This document shows positions 14,049-58,109 of a DNA stretch of 64,000 bases, one piece after another. Source of the DNA: Desulfobacterales bacterium (GTDB taxonomy: Bacteria; Desulfobacterota; Desulfobacteria; Desulfobacterales; SpSt-501); NCBI GenBank assembly GCA_046496215.1, contig JAWOHH010000139.1:8346-72345 (forward strand), given 5' to 3'. The first letter of the stretch is position 1, and every line of letters begins with the position of its first letter. Under the pieces are notes generated by a model. The model was not told the origin of the DNA and did not search any database. It saw only the letters and a program-made list of their open reading frames with translations. A program made the position numbers and the translations under genes.

Positions 14049-14121
14049 GAAACCCAAACGAAATTTTCCCGCCGCAGGCGGGAAGATTCAACGCCGAAAT
14101 TGGGCTTCCGGCTTCGCCATC
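14049..14121. repeat. Partial copy of the ~125-bp palindromic intergenic element
   Basis: CAACGCCGAAATTGGGCTT (14089-14107) is identical to 63734-63752; end abuts the gntR stop codon. Confidence 0.7.
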
Positions 14122-14821
14122 AAAGGATGGTTTTTAGCTCCCGGCGTATGCCGTTCAAGTGGTCCCGCATCCACTCGGCCGCGCCGCGGCCGTCCTCGCG
14201 TTCGATGCAGGCGAACACCTGCTTCAGGGTGCGGATGGCATGGGCCCGGTAATCGGCCGAGATGAGGGTGGTCCGGAACGTTTCGTGGTGGCCGACCACT
14301 TTTTCGAGCAGAAACCTCAGCATCTCGCTGAAAATCGGGTTGAGGGTTGCATCTGCAAGTGCGGCGTGGAATTCCACGTCGGCTTTCAGGAACCGGCGGT
14401 AGTCTTCGCGGCTCTCCTCCATCTCCCGCAAGGCGAGTTTGAGCCGCTGGCGGTGAGCGCTCTCCGCTCTCTCCGCGGCGAGCTCCCCTGCGCGGCACTC
14501 GAGGGCTTCGCGCAGCTCGAGGAGGTCTATGAGGCTTCCGGCCCGCAGGGCGGCCTGCAAGGTGGAGGCGGGCAGGTCGTTGGCGGGCGGCTCGCGGGCG
14601 ACGAACGTGCCCCGGCCCTGCTGAACGTCCAGGTAGCCCATCACCGCCAGAGCATTCAGAGCCTCCCGCAGGGAGGATCGGCCGACCCCGAAACGCTTGG
14701 CAAGCTCGCGCTGGGAAGGAAGCCGGGACCCGGTGGTGATTTCGCCGCTCTTCAGTTTTTTCAGGATCTGCTCGACCACGATTTCGGGGGCCGTATTCCT
14801 GCGGACCGCTTCGAAAACCAT
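14120..14821 (-). CDS. GntR family (FadR subfamily) transcriptional regulator
   Basis: wHTH LPSQRELAKRFGVGRSSLREAL..GRGTF plus FCD domain (ADVEFHAALADATLNP). Confidence 0.93.
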   Translation of the reverse strand: MVFEAVRRNTAPEIVVEQILKKLKSGEITTGSRLPSQRELAKRFGVGRSSLREALNALAVMGYLDVQQGRGTFVAREPPANDLPASTLQAALRAGSLIDLLELREALECRAGELAAERAESAHRQRLKLALREMEESREDYRRFLKADVEFHAALADATLNPIFSEMLRFLLEKVVGHHETFRTTLISADYRAHAIRTLKQVFACIEREDGRGAAEWMRDHLNGIRRELKTIL

Positions 14822-14914: not shown

Positions 14915-14969
14915 TTGACACCAGCAAGAATCCCTTGTAATATCAACTCATCAGGTCTTCAGACCAATT
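14915..14969 (+). promoter_or_regulatory. sigma70 promoter of the hypD module with a FadR-type operator
   Basis: TTGACA-17 bp-TAATAT, then palindrome GGTCTTCAGACC (14954-14965) resembling PdhR/LldR/LutR boxes. Confidence 0.7.
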
Positions 14970-14998: not shown

Positions 14999-15967
14999 AT
15001 GAATAATTTATATTGCTCTTTTTCGTCGCGCAGTCTGTTGGAGGGACCCACGCCGGAGGTGCAGGCAAGCGGTTTGATCTTCAACGTCATGCGGTTTTCC
15101 ACCCATGACGGACCAGGAATCCGTACAACAATCTTCCTAAAGGGCTGCCCGCTGCGCTGCTGGTGGTGCCACAACCCGGAAAACTGGAGCGACGTGCCAA
15201 GCGAGGTGTTTCTGGCCGCACGCTGCAACGGATGCGGGGCCTGCATCGAAGGCTGCCCCGAGGGGGCCTTGTCGCGCACCCCGCAGGGAATCACGGCCGA
15301 CCCGAGACGCTGCCGGCACTGCGGCCGGTGCGTCGAGATCTGCCCGTCCGAAGCCCGCGAGCGCACGGTGCGCGAGGCAGGTGTGACCGAGTTGGTGCAG
15401 GCGATCGAGAGAGACGCCCCGTTCTACGAGCAGTCCGGCGGCGGTGTGACCTTTTCGGGCGGCGAGCCCCTGTGCCAGCCCGGCTTCCTGCTCTGCCTGC
15501 TCGAAGCCTGCGGCCGCCTGGGGATCCACTGCGCGGTGGACACCAGCGGTCATGCCGAAACCGGGCTGCTGCTCGCGGTCGCCCGGCACACGGATCTTTT
15601 TCTGTACGACCTCAAGGCGCTGGATCCGATTCGCCACCGGGAGCAGACGGGGGTGGACAATCGCGCAATTCTGGACAATCTGGAGCACCTCTCGGAATCC
15701 GGGGCCGAAATCATCCTGCGCATCCCGCTCATCCCGGGGCTGAACGACGATGATGCGAGCATCGATTGTATCGGGGAATACATCGCGGGGCTGCCCTGCA
15801 GGCACGCGGTCGACCTGCTGCCCTTTCACCGTGCGGCCAAGGGCAAGTATCAAAAGCTCGGGTTGTGCTACCGCGGGGAGAGGACTGCCCCGCCCGAACC
15901 TGCGCGCATCGCCGAGATCGCAAAACGCCTTTCCGGATTCGGCCTGAACGTGAACGTGGGGGGGTGA
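14999..15967 (+). CDS. Glycyl-radical enzyme activating protein (radical SAM with ferredoxin insert)
   Basis: HDGPGIRTTIFLKGCPLRCWWCHNPE; two CxxCxxCxxxC motifs; GGVTFSGGEP. Confidence 0.95.
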   Translation: MNNLYCSFSSRSLLEGPTPEVQASGLIFNVMRFSTHDGPGIRTTIFLKGCPLRCWWCHNPENWSDVPSEVFLAARCNGCGACIEGCPEGALSRTPQGITADPRRCRHCGRCVEICPSEARERTVREAGVTELVQAIERDAPFYEQSGGGVTFSGGEPLCQPGFLLCLLEACGRLGIHCAVDTSGHAETGLLLAVARHTDLFLYDLKALDPIRHREQTGVDNRAILDNLEHLSESGAEIILRIPLIPGLNDDDASIDCIGEYIAGLPCRHAVDLLPFHRAAKGKYQKLGLCYRGERTAPPEPARIAEIAKRLSGFGLNVNVGG

Positions 15968-15971
15968 GGCC

Positions 15972-18332
15972 ATGAACGAACGCGTCGAACGGCTTCGACA
16001 AGAGAGCCAAAACACCCGGCCCACCGTCTCCATCGAGCGGGCCCTGCTGGTCACCGCCTTCTACAGGGAGGAGGCCGGAAAGCACTCCACGCCCGTCATG
16101 CGGGCCCTGAACTTCAAAAACCTCTGCGAAAAAAAGACCCTATATATCGGCGAGCCGGAGTTGATCGTCGGCGAGCGCGGGCCCCGGCCCAAGGCCGTGC
16201 CCACCTTCCCGGAGCTGACCTGCCACAGCGGCGAGGACCTGAGAATTTTGGACTCGCGGCCCATGATGCGCTACGGCATCTCGGCGGAGGAGATCCGCAC
16301 CTACGAGCGGGAGGTGATCCCCTACTGGCGGGCGCGCAGCATGCGCGACCGCATCTTCAGCCGGGTGCCCGACGAGTGGCAACGGGCCTACGAGGCCGGG
16401 CTGTTCACCGAGTTCATGGAACAGCGCGCGCCGGGCCACACGGCGCTGGACGGCACGATCTACGCCAAGGGCATGCTCGACTTCAAGGGCGAGATCGCCG
16501 CCGGCCTCTCCGGCCTCGATTTTCTCAACGACCCCGACGCCACGGCCAAGGCCGAGCAGCTGCGGGCGATGGACATCGCCTGCGACGCCGCCATTCTGTT
16601 TGCAGAGCGGCATGCAATGCTCGCCGAGGAGATGGCGGCCGCCGAGACCAACGCCCGCCGCCGGGCGGAACTTGCACGCATCGCAACGGTCTGCCGCCGG
16701 GTGCCGGCCCTCGCCCCGCGCGATCTCTGGGAAGCCCTGCAGATGTATTGGTTTGTACATTTGGGTACAATAACTGAGCTGAACGGCTGGGACGCCATGA
16801 CCCCTGGGCACCTCGACCAGCATCTGCAGCCGTTCTACGAGCAGGGCCTCAGAGACGGGACCCTCACGGCCGAAGAGGCCAGGGAACTCATCGCCTGCTT
16901 CTGGATCAAGGTCAACAACCACCCGGCCCCGCCGAAGGTCGGAGTCACGGCCCGGGAGAGCGGCACTTACAACGACTTCACGAACATCAACCTGGGCGGC
17001 CTGACGGGCGACGGCGAAAGCGCGGTGAGCGAGCTGAGCACCCTCATTTTGGAGGTGGCCGATGCGCTGCACGTGCTTCAGCCCCAAGCGAGCGTGCACA
17101 TCAGCGACAAGACCCCGGAGCGCTTCCTCAGGGAGGCCTGCCGCGTGATCCGAAGGGGTCGCGGGTTTCCTTCCGTGTTCAATGCGGACGCCACGGTGCT
17201 CGAGATGCTGCGCGCGGGCAAGCGCCTCGAGGACGCCCGGGAGGGCGGCTGCAGCGGCTGCGTCGAAACCGGGGCCTTCGGCAAGGAGGCCTACATCCTG
17301 ACGGGCTATCTCAACGTGCCCAAGGTGCTGGAGCTGGCATTGAACAACGGCGTCGACCCCCGGACCGGCAAAGCGGTCGGGCCGCCGACCGGCGCCGCTG
17401 CCGAGTTCACCTCCTTCGAGCAGCTCTATGCGGCCTTCGAAAAACAGCTCGAGTGGGTCGTGGACCTGAAGGTCCGGGTGAACAACTTCATCGAGCGCAT
17501 GTTCGCCGACCATTCACCGGCGCCGTTTCTCTCTGTCGTCATCAGCGACTGCATTGCCAAGGGGCGTGACTACTATGACGGCGGGCCGCGCTACAACACC
17601 AACTACATTCCGTGCTGCGGCATCGGCACGGTCACCGACAGCCTCTCCGCCCTCGACACCCACGTGTACAGGGAGAAGACGATCGGCATGCCGCGGTTGA
17701 TGCGGGCCCTCGCCCACGACTTTCAGGGCGAGGAGGCCCTGCGCAACCGGCTCAGGAACAAGACCCCCTTCTTCGGCAACGACGACCCGCGCGCCGATGC
17801 CATCATGCAGCGTGTCTACCACTCCCTGTTCAGCACCATCGACGGCCGGCCGAACACAAAGGGCGGAAACTATCACTTGAATATGCTCTCGACGACCTGC
17901 CATGTCTACTTCGGCAAAATGCTGGGGGCCACCCCCAACGGCCGCCTAGCCGGGGCCCCGGAATCCGACGGCACCTCCCCGTCCCACGGCGCGGACCGCT
18001 GCGGGCCGACGGCGGTGATCCACTCGCTCGCCAGGATGGACCAGGTCAAATCCGGCGGCACGCTGCTCAACATGCGCTTGCTGCCGAGCGCCCTCGCCTC
18101 CGAGGGCGACCTGGAAAAGCTCGCCCACCTCATCCGGACCTATTTCCGGATGGGCGGCCACCACATCCAGTTCAACGTGGTGGACACCGAAACCCTGCAC
18201 CGGGCACAGACCGAGCCCGAGAACTACCGCGACCTGCTCGTGCGCGTGGCCGGCTACAGCGACTACTTCGTCGACCTGGACGTCCACCACCAGGAGGAGA
18301 TCATCAACCGCACGGCACAACCTGTCTGGTAG
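15972..18332 (+). CDS. hypD: Glycyl radical enzyme, trans-4-hydroxy-L-proline dehydratase
   Basis: FTEFMEQRAPGH, WDA, PAPPKVG, ESGTYNDF, SGCVE, LTGY, LSTTCH and RVAGYS match the recalled C. difficile HypD active-site residues. Confidence 0.88.
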   Translation: MNERVERLRQESQNTRPTVSIERALLVTAFYREEAGKHSTPVMRALNFKNLCEKKTLYIGEPELIVGERGPRPKAVPTFPELTCHSGEDLRILDSRPMMRYGISAEEIRTYEREVIPYWRARSMRDRIFSRVPDEWQRAYEAGLFTEFMEQRAPGHTALDGTIYAKGMLDFKGEIAAGLSGLDFLNDPDATAKAEQLRAMDIACDAAILFAERHAMLAEEMAAAETNARRRAELARIATVCRRVPALAPRDLWEALQMYWFVHLGTITELNGWDAMTPGHLDQHLQPFYEQGLRDGTLTAEEARELIACFWIKVNNHPAPPKVGVTARESGTYNDFTNINLGGLTGDGESAVSELSTLILEVADALHVLQPQASVHISDKTPERFLREACRVIRRGRGFPSVFNADATVLEMLRAGKRLEDAREGGCSGCVETGAFGKEAYILTGYLNVPKVLELALNNGVDPRTGKAVGPPTGAAAEFTSFEQLYAAFEKQLEWVVDLKVRVNNFIERMFADHSPAPFLSVVISDCIAKGRDYYDGGPRYNTNYIPCCGIGTVTDSLSALDTHVYREKTIGMPRLMRALAHDFQGEEALRNRLRNKTPFFGNDDPRADAIMQRVYHSLFSTIDGRPNTKGGNYHLNMLSTTCHVYFGKMLGATPNGRLAGAPESDGTSPSHGADRCGPTAVIHSLARMDQVKSGGTLLNMRLLPSALASEGDLEKLAHLIRTYFRMGGHHIQFNVVDTETLHRAQTEPENYRDLLVRVAGYSDYFVDLDVHHQEEIINRTAQPVW
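16753..16770. promoter_or_regulatory. Intragenic 18-bp palindrome TTGTACATTTGGGTACAA (putative operator)
   Basis: TTGTAC-N6-GTACAA within an AT-rich codon patch of hypD; same motif as 18475 and 18506. Confidence 0.5.
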
Positions 18333-18351
18333 GAAAAAAGGGGGGAATAAA

Positions 18352-18407
18352 GGGTCCAGAGTTCAGGGTGATGGATGCGGGGTTCAAGGTTTATGGTTCA
18401 AGGTTGG
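18352..18407 (+). repeat. Degenerate heptamer tandem repeat (NGGTTCA-like, 8 units)
   Basis: gggtcca gagttca gggtgat ggatgcg gggttca aggttta tggttca aggttgg. Confidence 0.55.
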
Positions 18408-18474
18408 TAAAACAATCGTTCGGAATTGTTCAAGCGATGGGAACGGCGCTGTTTACCCTGACAAAGCGCAATTA

Positions 18475-18523
18475 TTGTACATAAAATTACAAATAACCTC
18501 TAAAATTGTACAGATAAATACAA
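18475..18523. promoter_or_regulatory. Two TTGTACA-N6-TACAA boxes immediately upstream of the serine dehydratase start
   Basis: TTGTACATAAAATTACAA (18475-18492) and TTGTACAGATAAATACAA (18506-18523), 31 bp apart. Confidence 0.65.
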
Positions 18524-18526
18524 AAA

Positions 18527-20122
18527 ATGGTCTCCGGATTTCCCAGCATTTACAACGATGTGATCGGCCCGGTGATGCGGGGACCGTCGAGTTCGCACTG
18601 TGCGGCCGCCGTGCGCATCGGCCGCTTGGCCCGCGACCTGATGGGCGGCCGCATCGGCCGGGTTTTGATGGAATTCGACTCTAAGGGATCCCTGGCCTTC
18701 ACCCATGCGAGCCAGGGGTCCGACATGGGGTTTTTGGGCGGCCTCATGGGCTGGGATGCCCGGGACGATCGCCTGCTCGATTCAGCGACCGCCGCCCGGG
18801 ACGCCGGGATCGAAGCGGAAATCCGGGTCACCGACTTCGGCGACCCCCACCCCAACACCTACCGCCTGACCCTGAGCAACCCGGCCGAACGCCACACCAT
18901 GGTCGCCCTGTCCACCGGGGGGGGAATGATCGAGCTGGTCGAAATCGACCAGGTGCCGCTTTCGATCAAGGGCGACTATTTCGAGACCCTGGTTGCGGTG
19001 GGCTCGCCGACCGAGGGCTTCGCCGGTCTGGCAAATCTGGCAAAGGCGGCTGCCGAGCAAACCCACGTGCGGCAGGGGTCTAAAATGGCCCTGGTCCAGA
19101 TCCAGAGCCGGGCGCCCCTGCCCAACTTCGTCATGGCCGGCCTGGCGGCTTGGCCGGGAGTCCTTTGGATCAGAGCCCTCGCGCCGGTACTGCCGATCCT
19201 CTCCCGCCGACACCTGCGCGTGCCTTTCATCACCAGCGCCGAGATGCTGGCCTACCAGCCGGAGGAGGGGCTCGACCTCGGCCGGCTGGCCTTGCGCTAC
19301 GAGAGCGCCCGGGGCGGCATCCCCGAGGCCGAGGTGTTCCGGCGCATGGTAGAGATCGTGCGTACCCTGCGCGCCTCCATTACCGAGGGGCTCGAGGGCA
19401 CGGCATTCCAAAACCGAATCCTCGGGTTCCAGTCCGGCGGCTATGTCTCCGCCAAACGCTCAGGCCGACTGCTCGACGCCGGCCTGATGGACACCGTCAT
19501 CGCCTACGTGACGGCCCTGATGGAGGTCAAGAGCGCCATGGGGGTCATCGTGGCGGCCCCCACGGCCGGCGCCTGCGGCGCGCTGCCGGGGGCCGTGATC
19601 GGGGCCGCCGACGGAATGCAGCTGGACGAGGAGGAGATGGCCCGGGCCCTGCTGGCGGCCGGCATGCTGGGCGTCTTCATCTGCGCCCGCTCCACCTTCG
19701 CCGCCGAGGTCTGCGGGTGCATGGCCGAGTGCGGGTCCGCCGCGGGCATGGCCGCCGCCGCCCTGGTCACCCTTGCCGGCGGGAGCGCCCACCAGGCCGT
19801 CGATGCGGCCGCGATGGCCCTCCAGAACATGGTCGGCCTGGCCTGCGACCCGGTGGCCGGCCGTGTGGAGGTGCCCTGCCTCGGCAAGAACGTGCTGGCC
19901 GCAGCCAACGCCCTCGCCTGCGCCAACATGGCGCTCGCCGGGTACGACGCCGTCGTCCCCCTGGACGAGGTGATCGCCGCCATGGACCGGGCCGGCAGGA
20001 GCCTGCCCATGGAGCTGCGCTGCACGGGCCTGGGGGGACTTGCGACTACCGCAACCTCGCGGACGATCGAAAAGAAGCTGGCTGCGCCAACCACCGCAGT
20101 CAAAACAGGAGGCCGTCCATGA
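18527..20122 (+). CDS. Fe-S L-serine dehydratase family protein, fused beta/alpha
   Basis: IGPVMRGPSSSH and STGGG (beta); APTAGACG, CGCMAECG, GLACDPVAGRVEVPC, ELRCTGLGGLA (alpha). Confidence 0.88.
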   Translation: MVSGFPSIYNDVIGPVMRGPSSSHCAAAVRIGRLARDLMGGRIGRVLMEFDSKGSLAFTHASQGSDMGFLGGLMGWDARDDRLLDSATAARDAGIEAEIRVTDFGDPHPNTYRLTLSNPAERHTMVALSTGGGMIELVEIDQVPLSIKGDYFETLVAVGSPTEGFAGLANLAKAAAEQTHVRQGSKMALVQIQSRAPLPNFVMAGLAAWPGVLWIRALAPVLPILSRRHLRVPFITSAEMLAYQPEEGLDLGRLALRYESARGGIPEAEVFRRMVEIVRTLRASITEGLEGTAFQNRILGFQSGGYVSAKRSGRLLDAGLMDTVIAYVTALMEVKSAMGVIVAAPTAGACGALPGAVIGAADGMQLDEEEMARALLAAGMLGVFICARSTFAAEVCGCMAECGSAAGMAAAALVTLAGGSAHQAVDAAAMALQNMVGLACDPVAGRVEVPCLGKNVLAAANALACANMALAGYDAVVPLDEVIAAMDRAGRSLPMELRCTGLGGLATTATSRTIEKKLAAPTTAVKTGGRP

Positions 20123-58092: not shown

Positions 58093-58109
58093 AGCAAGGC
58101 TTGTGCCAA
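58093..58109 (-). promoter_or_regulatory. sigma54 (-24/-12) promoter of the ech operon
   Basis: Minus strand TTGGCACAAGCCTTGCT about 75 bp upstream of echA. Confidence 0.8.

Follow-up and report, generated by a model that had tools for sequence, protein, structure and literature searches.

The window analysed here, 64,000 nucleotides from the genome of a Desulfobacterales bacterium (GenBank assembly GCA_046496215.1, contig JAWOHH010000139.1), contains three palindromes that share the exact core TTGTA-N8-TACAA: one inside hypD, which encodes trans-4-hydroxy-L-proline dehydratase, and two between hypD and the downstream L-serine ammonia-lyase-like gene, sda (Table 1). These palindromes are almost certainly real protein sites, and comparison of orthologous genes indicates that the one inside hypD is held by selection at synonymous positions. 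The binder is very probably the product of an unannotated 233-aa gene, here called d0 (source genome G000, contig C18, 13890-14591, minus strand), whose own promoter carries the same motif; this assignment rests on the association between gene and motif described below. We give about an even chance to the further proposal that d0, acting on selected sites, represses hypD-sda locally by roadblock or DNA looping.

The intragenic copy (TTGTACATTTGGGTACAA) is a perfect TTGTAC-N6-GTACAA spelled by hypD codons 261-268 (TTT GTA CAT TTG GGT ACA ATA ACT), as an earlier, sequence-only reading of this DNA had reported. That reading took both intergenic copies for the same 18-bp pattern. Their positions and the 31-bp separation of their starts were correct, but each has one mismatch to the 18-mer, so that only the TTGTA-N8-TACAA core is common to all three. 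It was likewise right that the second copy stops 3 nt short of the sda ATG and that this start, at 18527, has no Shine-Dalgarno (SD)-like word upstream. Allowing up to two mismatches, the window has three matches, compared with a shuffle mean of 0.23, and three were reached in 0 of 100 shuffles. The genome-wide scan that the reading had called for found the 18-mer exactly once in the 3.93-Mb genome and three times at one mismatch or fewer, always at hypD-sda; the core occurs exactly four times, with three copies at hypD-sda and the fourth, at C18:14635, before d0. The site at 18506 also has the best matrix score in the genome, the scoring matrix having been trained on hypD-sda pairs themselves.

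hypD is strongly biased towards GC-ending codons, as had been stated, with only 89 of its 756 degenerate codons ending in A or T. In a set of 30 hypD loci from relatives, 22 of them from the source genus, the pattern TTT GTA nnn nnn nnT ACA ATA is kept in 9 of the 22 genus genes while the spacer codons are free, and one carrier swaps Gly for Ala yet retains the palindrome arm. All nine carriers have an A/T-ending codon at only 6 of 534 degenerate columns, and five of these are codons 261, 262, 265, 266 and 267; spacer codons 263-264 vary. Because the nine carriers had been chosen by motif, the test was rerun on all 22 genus genes: the seven-codon window at codon 261 was rich in A/T-ending codons in nine of them, whereas no window lying clear of this site was so in more than two. 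The carriers belong to three subclades, between which identity at fourfold sites is 0.53-0.65. Synonymous constraint in this comparison falls on the palindrome arms and not on the spacer, and the carriers do not revert there to GC-ending codons, which bears out the synonymous-site conservation that the sequence-only reading had proposed to look for.

The peptide FVHLGTI can itself spell the motif, so chance, protein constraint or RNA structure might in principle produce the intragenic run. We consider this very improbable, since from each gene's own codon usage the four arm codons should occur together at only ~10−5. Among metagenome hypD orthologues (best 80 of 576), nearly all encode the same peptide at GC contents down to 29%, and the exact site occurs in three, all GC-rich and linked to sda. 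None of the 72 loci in which no sda start was found has an exact site. AT-rich members of this set do not spell it either, although one comes within one mismatch. RNA folding z-scores were -0.9 and 0.1, and no Rfam match was obtained. Two further palindromes were seen in this part of hypD. The variant at 16600 is identical in the source genome and G002 only, has at least two mismatches in the other 27 scorable loci and is out of helical phase with the main intragenic site; an overlapping palindrome, ATGTA-N8-TACAT (16743-16760), lies 10 bp upstream of the main site in five genus orthologues.

d0 is single-copy in 24 of 26 relatives from the genus and has 740 homologues at E 0.001. Neighbourhoods were compared for the best 80 of 231 homologue loci, 74 of which had enough upstream DNA. 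In 59 of the 74 a site is present no more than 400 nt upstream, as against 2 of 74 for the reversed control motif; 11 of the remaining 15 have a site 420-1300 nt upstream, seven of these ahead of a nucleotidyltransferase (NTase) gene. Loci with sites include ones labelled Omnitrophota, Elusimicrobiota, Planctomycetota and Nitrospinota. Most often only a few bases separate the end of the proximal site from the -35 element below it, and d0's own promoter is the only one at which a fixed position of the site relative to the promoter was found. Several cassettes have arrays of sites 20-23 bp apart that overlap the -10 element and stop shortly ahead of the start codon, which is also the arrangement at sda in the window. 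Across 301 genomes of the order, strict pairs of sites were counted by eye, with related genomes included: 20 of the 57 genomes that have d0 contain them, as do 5 of the 244 that lack it. Three of these five d0-less genomes have their pairs out of phase, and another is an 85%-complete genome from a family in which 6 of 7 have d0. The loose pair pattern matched 53 of the 301 genomes, many by chance, and the count was confined to rows with no more than one mismatch in the second site; the pattern is blind to pairs outside 30-60 bp and missed many pairs of the source genus.

The d0 sequence gave no Pfam, PDB sequence or PADLOC match and no match to the ParB family; its Atlas neighbours are without names, and a Foldseek search with the model returned nothing at E 0.001. 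Such unmatched searches do not show the fold to be new. In the model, a flexible linker joins a helical N-domain to a compact C-domain. With the whole model, VIA matches were generic helical repeats. The C-domain is predicted with confidence (predicted local distance difference test score 90.9), and among its 35 best structural neighbours more than 20 are chains of the sigma-factor (region 4) or LuxR/NarL type, at weak Z values. The local FadR-type GntR regulator was rejected as binder of the palindrome: it has its own conserved box and shares no profile similarity with d0.

Matrix matches below the top three of the source genome (C129:54326, C17:103476 and others) showed no tie to d0. The fourth-best, at C129:54326, is a one-mismatch site 15 nt upstream of a gene starting MAIKSGKEY and has no orthologue among the fetched loci. 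At C17:103476, and at L057 and L153, a related motif lies between an RpiR-family gene and a cytochrome c' gene and is kept in relatives; it is probably an RpiR operator rather than a d0 site.

The form of the palindrome also allows a reading in which it is a sigma54-activator enhancer or a CRP/NtcA-type site and its association with d0 is secondary. TGT-N10-ACA fits both consensus types, and NtcA boxes have the same GTA-N8-TAC geometry. The genome has 33 full-length matches to sigma54 activators, and free positioning is enhancer-like. A study of sigma54-dependent enhancer-binding proteins in Desulfovibrio describes similar TGT...ACA half-sites and tandem layouts, and considers sites far from promoters or in coding regions possible (PMC4641369). 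The spacers of the groups seen there are 9, 11 or 12 bp, however, and not 10. No sigma54 promoter lies near the palindromes; no conserved -24/-12 element was found in 21 regions of up to 26 kb, and the scan of the window was at chance level. Just one CRP-family protein scores above cut-off; its helix, GTIPETLSR, is presumably unlike the NtcA recognition helix, and no NtcA-like helix was found in the genome. Neither protein type accounts for the arrays before d0 cassettes in several phyla, and we regard this reading as quite unlikely.

Pairs of sites are phased. Among all fetched DNA, 59 of 61 distinct pairs have spacings of whole helical turns (21-23, 31-33, 42-44, 53-55, 65, 74-75 or 84-88 bp, equivalent to 2 to 8 turns at ~10.7 bp), and the reversed motif forms no pairs. 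As orthologous pairs are not independent, phasing was tested on the 22 distinct spacings, and was reached in 1 of 20000 random draws. The pair after hypD is present in 14 of the 20 orthologous loci in which sda follows hypD, at 31 bp in 12 and 32 bp in 2. A metallo-beta-lactamase-fold gene in four genomes from other families has a cluster on either side, the two lying 1.33-1.44 kb from each other, in parallel with the 1.72 kb at hypD-sda. The whole-turn spacings and this second locus with separated clusters make looping more plausible, and from these patterns we think it probable that paired sites are bridged by d0.

Pairs also occur at other genes. An Asp/Glu racemase gene of another lineage carries an in-frame 32-bp pair across its CTNTMH motif: five genomes have a second site with at most one mismatch together with a lineage-specific Tyr in KLYD(E/D)VQ, while 24 other loci lack the Tyr and have at least four mismatches (three loci gave no row). 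Within the genus, 8 of 18 scorable loci (L398-L419) have pairs upstream of YbaK/ProX tRNA-editing genes, and such a pair was found separately in G063 (L509:3704-3805); the source genome has no YbaK pair. Given the NTase ancestry described next, a tie of the YbaK-linked pairs to tRNA quality control is conceivable.

The gene ahead of d0 is an NTase gene in 8 of the 80 homologue loci. Six of the eight NTase reading frames tested pass the DUF6036 cut-off, and four of five weakly match AbiEii models. In 53 loci d0 instead follows a ResIII/DEAD helicase gene; these form one clade (SH-aLRT support 99) apart from the eight NTase-linked homologues. DUF6036 is found in only 5 of 26 genus relatives and never adjoins d0. 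Across the order, pairs at loci other than d0's belong to families whose d0 has no partner; in the remaining genomes with d0, strict pairs adjoin d0's own gene, with one exception. These patterns suggest that d0 was probably captured from a toxin-antitoxin-like gene pair. Two-gene cassettes of an NTase gene followed by d0, having between one and three operators spaced 20-23 bp, were seen at L241, L242, L246, L248, L257, L261, L262 and L263, and are candidates for an undescribed toxin-antitoxin or defence module in several phyla.

Distant d0 homologues paired with an NTase, with tandem inverted repeats around the promoter, are reminiscent of AbiE and MenAT, and repeats before an NTase-d0 unit suggest autoregulation by the non-NTase protein. 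According to PMC7319586, AbiEi regulates itself through promoter inverted repeats, with a winged helix-turn-helix at its N-terminus, monomers on 23-bp repeats and a DUF1814 toxin. d0 differs in its modelled all-helical N-domain without a wing, its predicted C-terminal sigma4-like domain, its DUF6036 partner and its lack of a PADLOC match. Moreover, the NTase does not adjoin d0 in the source genus, unlike in AbiE/MenAT; it does so in the eight distant loci. By analogy, then, the d0 cassettes resemble autoregulated NTase modules, which suggests a likeness without establishing membership in the AbiE/MenAT family. A literature search returned nothing on DUF6036 nucleotidyltransferases or orphan-antitoxin global regulators (most subscription journals lay outside its coverage), and nothing on this motif system by way of intragenic operators or looping, hypD regulation or domesticated antitoxins (titles and beginnings of abstracts, with subscription journals largely uncovered).

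The proposed mechanism is as follows. A d0 dimer would bind each palindrome through the C-terminal helix-turn-helix-like domain and control its own promoter, as its relatives may do in two-gene NTase-d0 cassettes resembling toxin-antitoxin modules. In one Desulfobacterales lineage the NTase partner would have been lost, d0 would have become fixed behind a helicase gene, and sites would have arisen at a few further loci. Two bound dimers touching on one face of the helix would set short spacings at whole turns and leave the position of the cluster free. Like lac O2, the hypD site would be an auxiliary that anchors the pair, 1.7 kb distant, so that bridged in-phase sites could loop or block DNA across the hypD-sda operon and damp transcription. 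RNA polymerase arriving from the hypD promoter would meet the complex, which in the source genome only would cover the local -10 element too. Local repression is favoured by the autoregulatory geometry, by the phasing and by the retention of sites where hypD is far from other clusters (G018).

Several observations weigh against this proposal. No conserved target promoter was found near the pair in the 14 loci, a sigma70-like promoter overlaps it in the source genome only, and the hypD promoter itself lacks a site. G007 and G008 carry the intragenic site without the pair, and eight loci carry the pair without the intragenic site, so a 1.7-kb loop is not obligatory; the distance from intragenic site to first pair site ranges from 1633 to 1868 bp across relatives. 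The only site of G009, G019 and G020 is ~1 kb past the hypD promoter, where it follows gntR and sits between convergent genes. As for d0 itself, 4 of the 74 loci showed no upstream site, and the best helix-turn-helix match of the C-domain (Z 4.8, root-mean-square deviation 3.3, 62 residues aligned) is exceeded by an unrelated chain at Z 5.2, all helix-turn-helix matches being below the guide value of Z 8. Counts that include related genomes overstate independence, and the tree that sets the helicase-linked clade apart is a quick one (75 rows, 5 short ones excluded, midpoint root, long branches).

The placement of the pair also tells against a proposal of the sequence-only reading. The pair follows the hypD stop by 11-288 nt, its gap to the sda start ranges from -1 to 296 nt and is no more than 10 nt in 8 of 14 loci, and SD-less sda starts occur in 9 of 14 loci with the pair and 3 of 6 without it; together with the promoter overlap at a single locus of 14, this does not fit a conserved operator of an sda promoter. 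Nor was a coupling of the two pathways borne out, as the motif marks functionally unrelated loci too.

Exact sites occur in all 27 genus genomes, 90 in total against 24 for the reversed control and one to six per genome, mostly at three loci: hypD, the intergenic region between YbaK and a PAS-kinase gene, and upstream of d0. Eighteen of 19 fetched genus neighbourhoods of hypD have a site between -3.5 and +2.2 kb (the reversed motif, 2 of 19), and in the sole exception the contig stops just after hypD. The varying positions suggest that the locus needs a site, but not at one position: depending on the species, it lies after gntR between convergent genes, above the hypD promoter (as in G001 and L319, which have no pair), inside hypD or after it.

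This freedom is what would be expected if d0 were a sequence-specific chromosome organiser, with clusters acting as loop anchors or topological barriers near a chromosomal address and the nearby genes as bystanders. The neighbours are indeed unrelated (YbaK and the PAS kinase, a citrate synthase region, HD proteins, the racemase), sites are tolerated inside coding sequence and between convergent genes, and the three genus clusters often share a contig, 29-58 kb from one another, with d0 as the middle one. That 30-60 kb spacing is explained by ordinary synteny, though, and the source genome does without the YbaK pair. In G018 the hypD cluster is at least ~345 kb from the other clusters yet keeps its sites, and three complete chromosomes have 2-6 scattered exact sites, not above the reversed control. 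No GC-skew switch crosses the region in three long contigs, dnaA is on other contigs in five of five genomes and canonical parS sites lie elsewhere, so this is not an origin, terminus or partition system. An organising role is possible, and we hold it as doubtful; local repression by d0 is the reading we prefer. A role at the origin, at the terminus, in a fork trap or as parS was rejected, with no clustering at origin or terminus, and a search for dif gave one doubtful half-site in one of five genomes. The complete chromosome of G062 has two full-length dnaA matches, at C1:38794 and 4030062.

The extra sites might instead be decoys that titrate d0, or relics of old cassette insertions, with no local effect. 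The motif is identical in the mobile-looking NTase-d0 cassettes, and the YbaK pair is accompanied, in the 8 of 18 loci that have it, by a longer intergenic region, as if inserted. Relics would not hold rare codons over near-saturated synonymous divergence or accompany an amino-acid change in the racemase, and decoys could sit anywhere, yet 18 of 19 genomes, with only one to six exact sites each, keep one within 3.5 kb of this location. We therefore consider decoys or relics unlikely.

The genes and control elements of the locus are listed with the sites in Table 1. The true start of the activating-enzyme gene is probably downstream of 14999. The sequence-only reading had set the palindrome apart from a FadR-type box at 14954, and this distinction stands: the box at 14950-14966 is a different motif, kept beside a sigma70 promoter in orthologues. 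It has the consensus ATCAG-N4-TCAGACCA, and relatives often have a second inverted copy near gntR. It is a clean candidate operator of the hydroxyproline operon regulator, and the FadR-subfamily GntR protein likely binds this box and not the palindrome. Between hypD and the pair, short GGTTCAAGG/GGGTTC repeats were seen at 18350-18420, and similar words stand beside clusters of sites in G036 (L285) and, in other families, beside d0 promoters (L214, L216, L224). Many relatives (L101, L102, L103, L104 and others) have a TTGACTTTT element that overlaps the sda stop or follows it closely and may be the promoter of the molybdopterin oxidoreductase gene; it is absent from the window, where that gene and sda overlap. 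Further along the window, an exact sigma54-type -24/-12 match on the minus strand (58094-58108) lies just upstream of a membrane hydrogenase-like operon.

Table 1. Palindromic sites, genes and promoter elements at hypD-sda (positions in the window) and related pairs in racemase genes (positions in their own loci).
Feature	Position	Strand	Remarks
Intragenic TTGTA-N8-TACAA site	16753..16770	none	hypD codons 261-267, peptide F-V-H-L-G-T-I
First hypD-sda intergenic pair site	18475..18492	none	Exact core; pair kept at 31-32 bp, 14 loci
Second hypD-sda pair site	18506..18523	none	Ends 3 nt before sda ATG (18527)
Candidate extra intragenic site, TTGCA-N8-TGCAA	16600..16617	none	Rare codons, 153 bp before main site; weak
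FadR-subfamily GntR regulator, divergent	14120..14821	-	PF00392 and PF07729
hypD operon sigma70 promoter (14915-14943) and separate FadR-type box (14950-14966)	14915..14966	+	Both conserved upstream in orthologues
Glycyl-radical activating enzyme	14999..15967	+	TIGR02494 above cut-off; NF043069 below cut-off
hypD, trans-4-hydroxy-L-proline dehydratase (glycyl radical enzyme)	15972..18332	+	NF043068 1147 bits, cut-off 1100
Sigma70-like promoter CTGACA-18-TAAAAT	18458..18487	+	-10 inside site 18475; not conserved
sda, fused beta-alpha Fe-S L-serine ammonia-lyase-like gene	18527..20122	+	TIGR00718 and TIGR00719 below cut-off; PF03313
Racemase-embedded pairs	L493:3572-3621, L497:3892-3941, L512, L513, L486

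Auxiliary operators and long-range looping are known from the intragenic O2 of lac and from lambda CI, and hypD-sda resembles these systems in having an auxiliary palindrome in coding sequence, partner sites near the next start and a predicted dependence of short-range cooperation on helical phase. It differs in that d0 is of an unrelated family, no target promoter is conserved, spacings run from 2 to 8 turns and sites also lie between convergent genes. KorB operators occur in three settings, just above the -35 element, at 100-200 bp from a promoter, and at distances over 1 kb in or between genes, and the handful of palindromes described here occupies the same three. KorB is described in PMC7022226 as a global ParB-family regulator of IncP-1 plasmids, whereas d0 has no ParB match, is chromosomal and has sites separate from parS. 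A few conserved palindromes in a loose gene context also recall sparse chromosome-address systems, from which the d0 sites differ in having no tie to origin or terminus and in numbering one to six exact sites per genus genome. Such systems include MatP with matS, RefZ with RBM, and Tus or RTP with Ter, the Tus/RTP site adjoining the gene of its binder.

As intragenic auxiliary operators and looping are already known, the novelty here lies in the protein family and its motif, and in the apparent origin of the former by capture from NTase cassettes. It is possible, though we lean against it, that a Desulfobacterales lineage domesticated the DNA-binding partner of a mobile, toxin-antitoxin-like NTase cassette as a sequence-specific DNA-bridging protein whose anchors are set by chromosomal neighbourhood rather than by promoter, which would constitute a new chromosome-organising or long-range silencing system. 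If so, the anchors matter enough for enzyme genes to keep rare codons and even a changed residue; and if the sites are architectural, d0 would be a chromosome organiser unrelated to MatP, ParB or SlmA. The synonymous codons of hypD, and the codons and residue of the racemase, would be two independent cases in sulfate-reducing bacteria of a binding site shaping coding sequence. The d0 family, which has no Pfam, PDB or PADLOC annotation, gains a precise candidate target sequence that holds across phyla, and may be a case in which the capture of a toxin-antitoxin-like regulator by the host chromosome can be traced.

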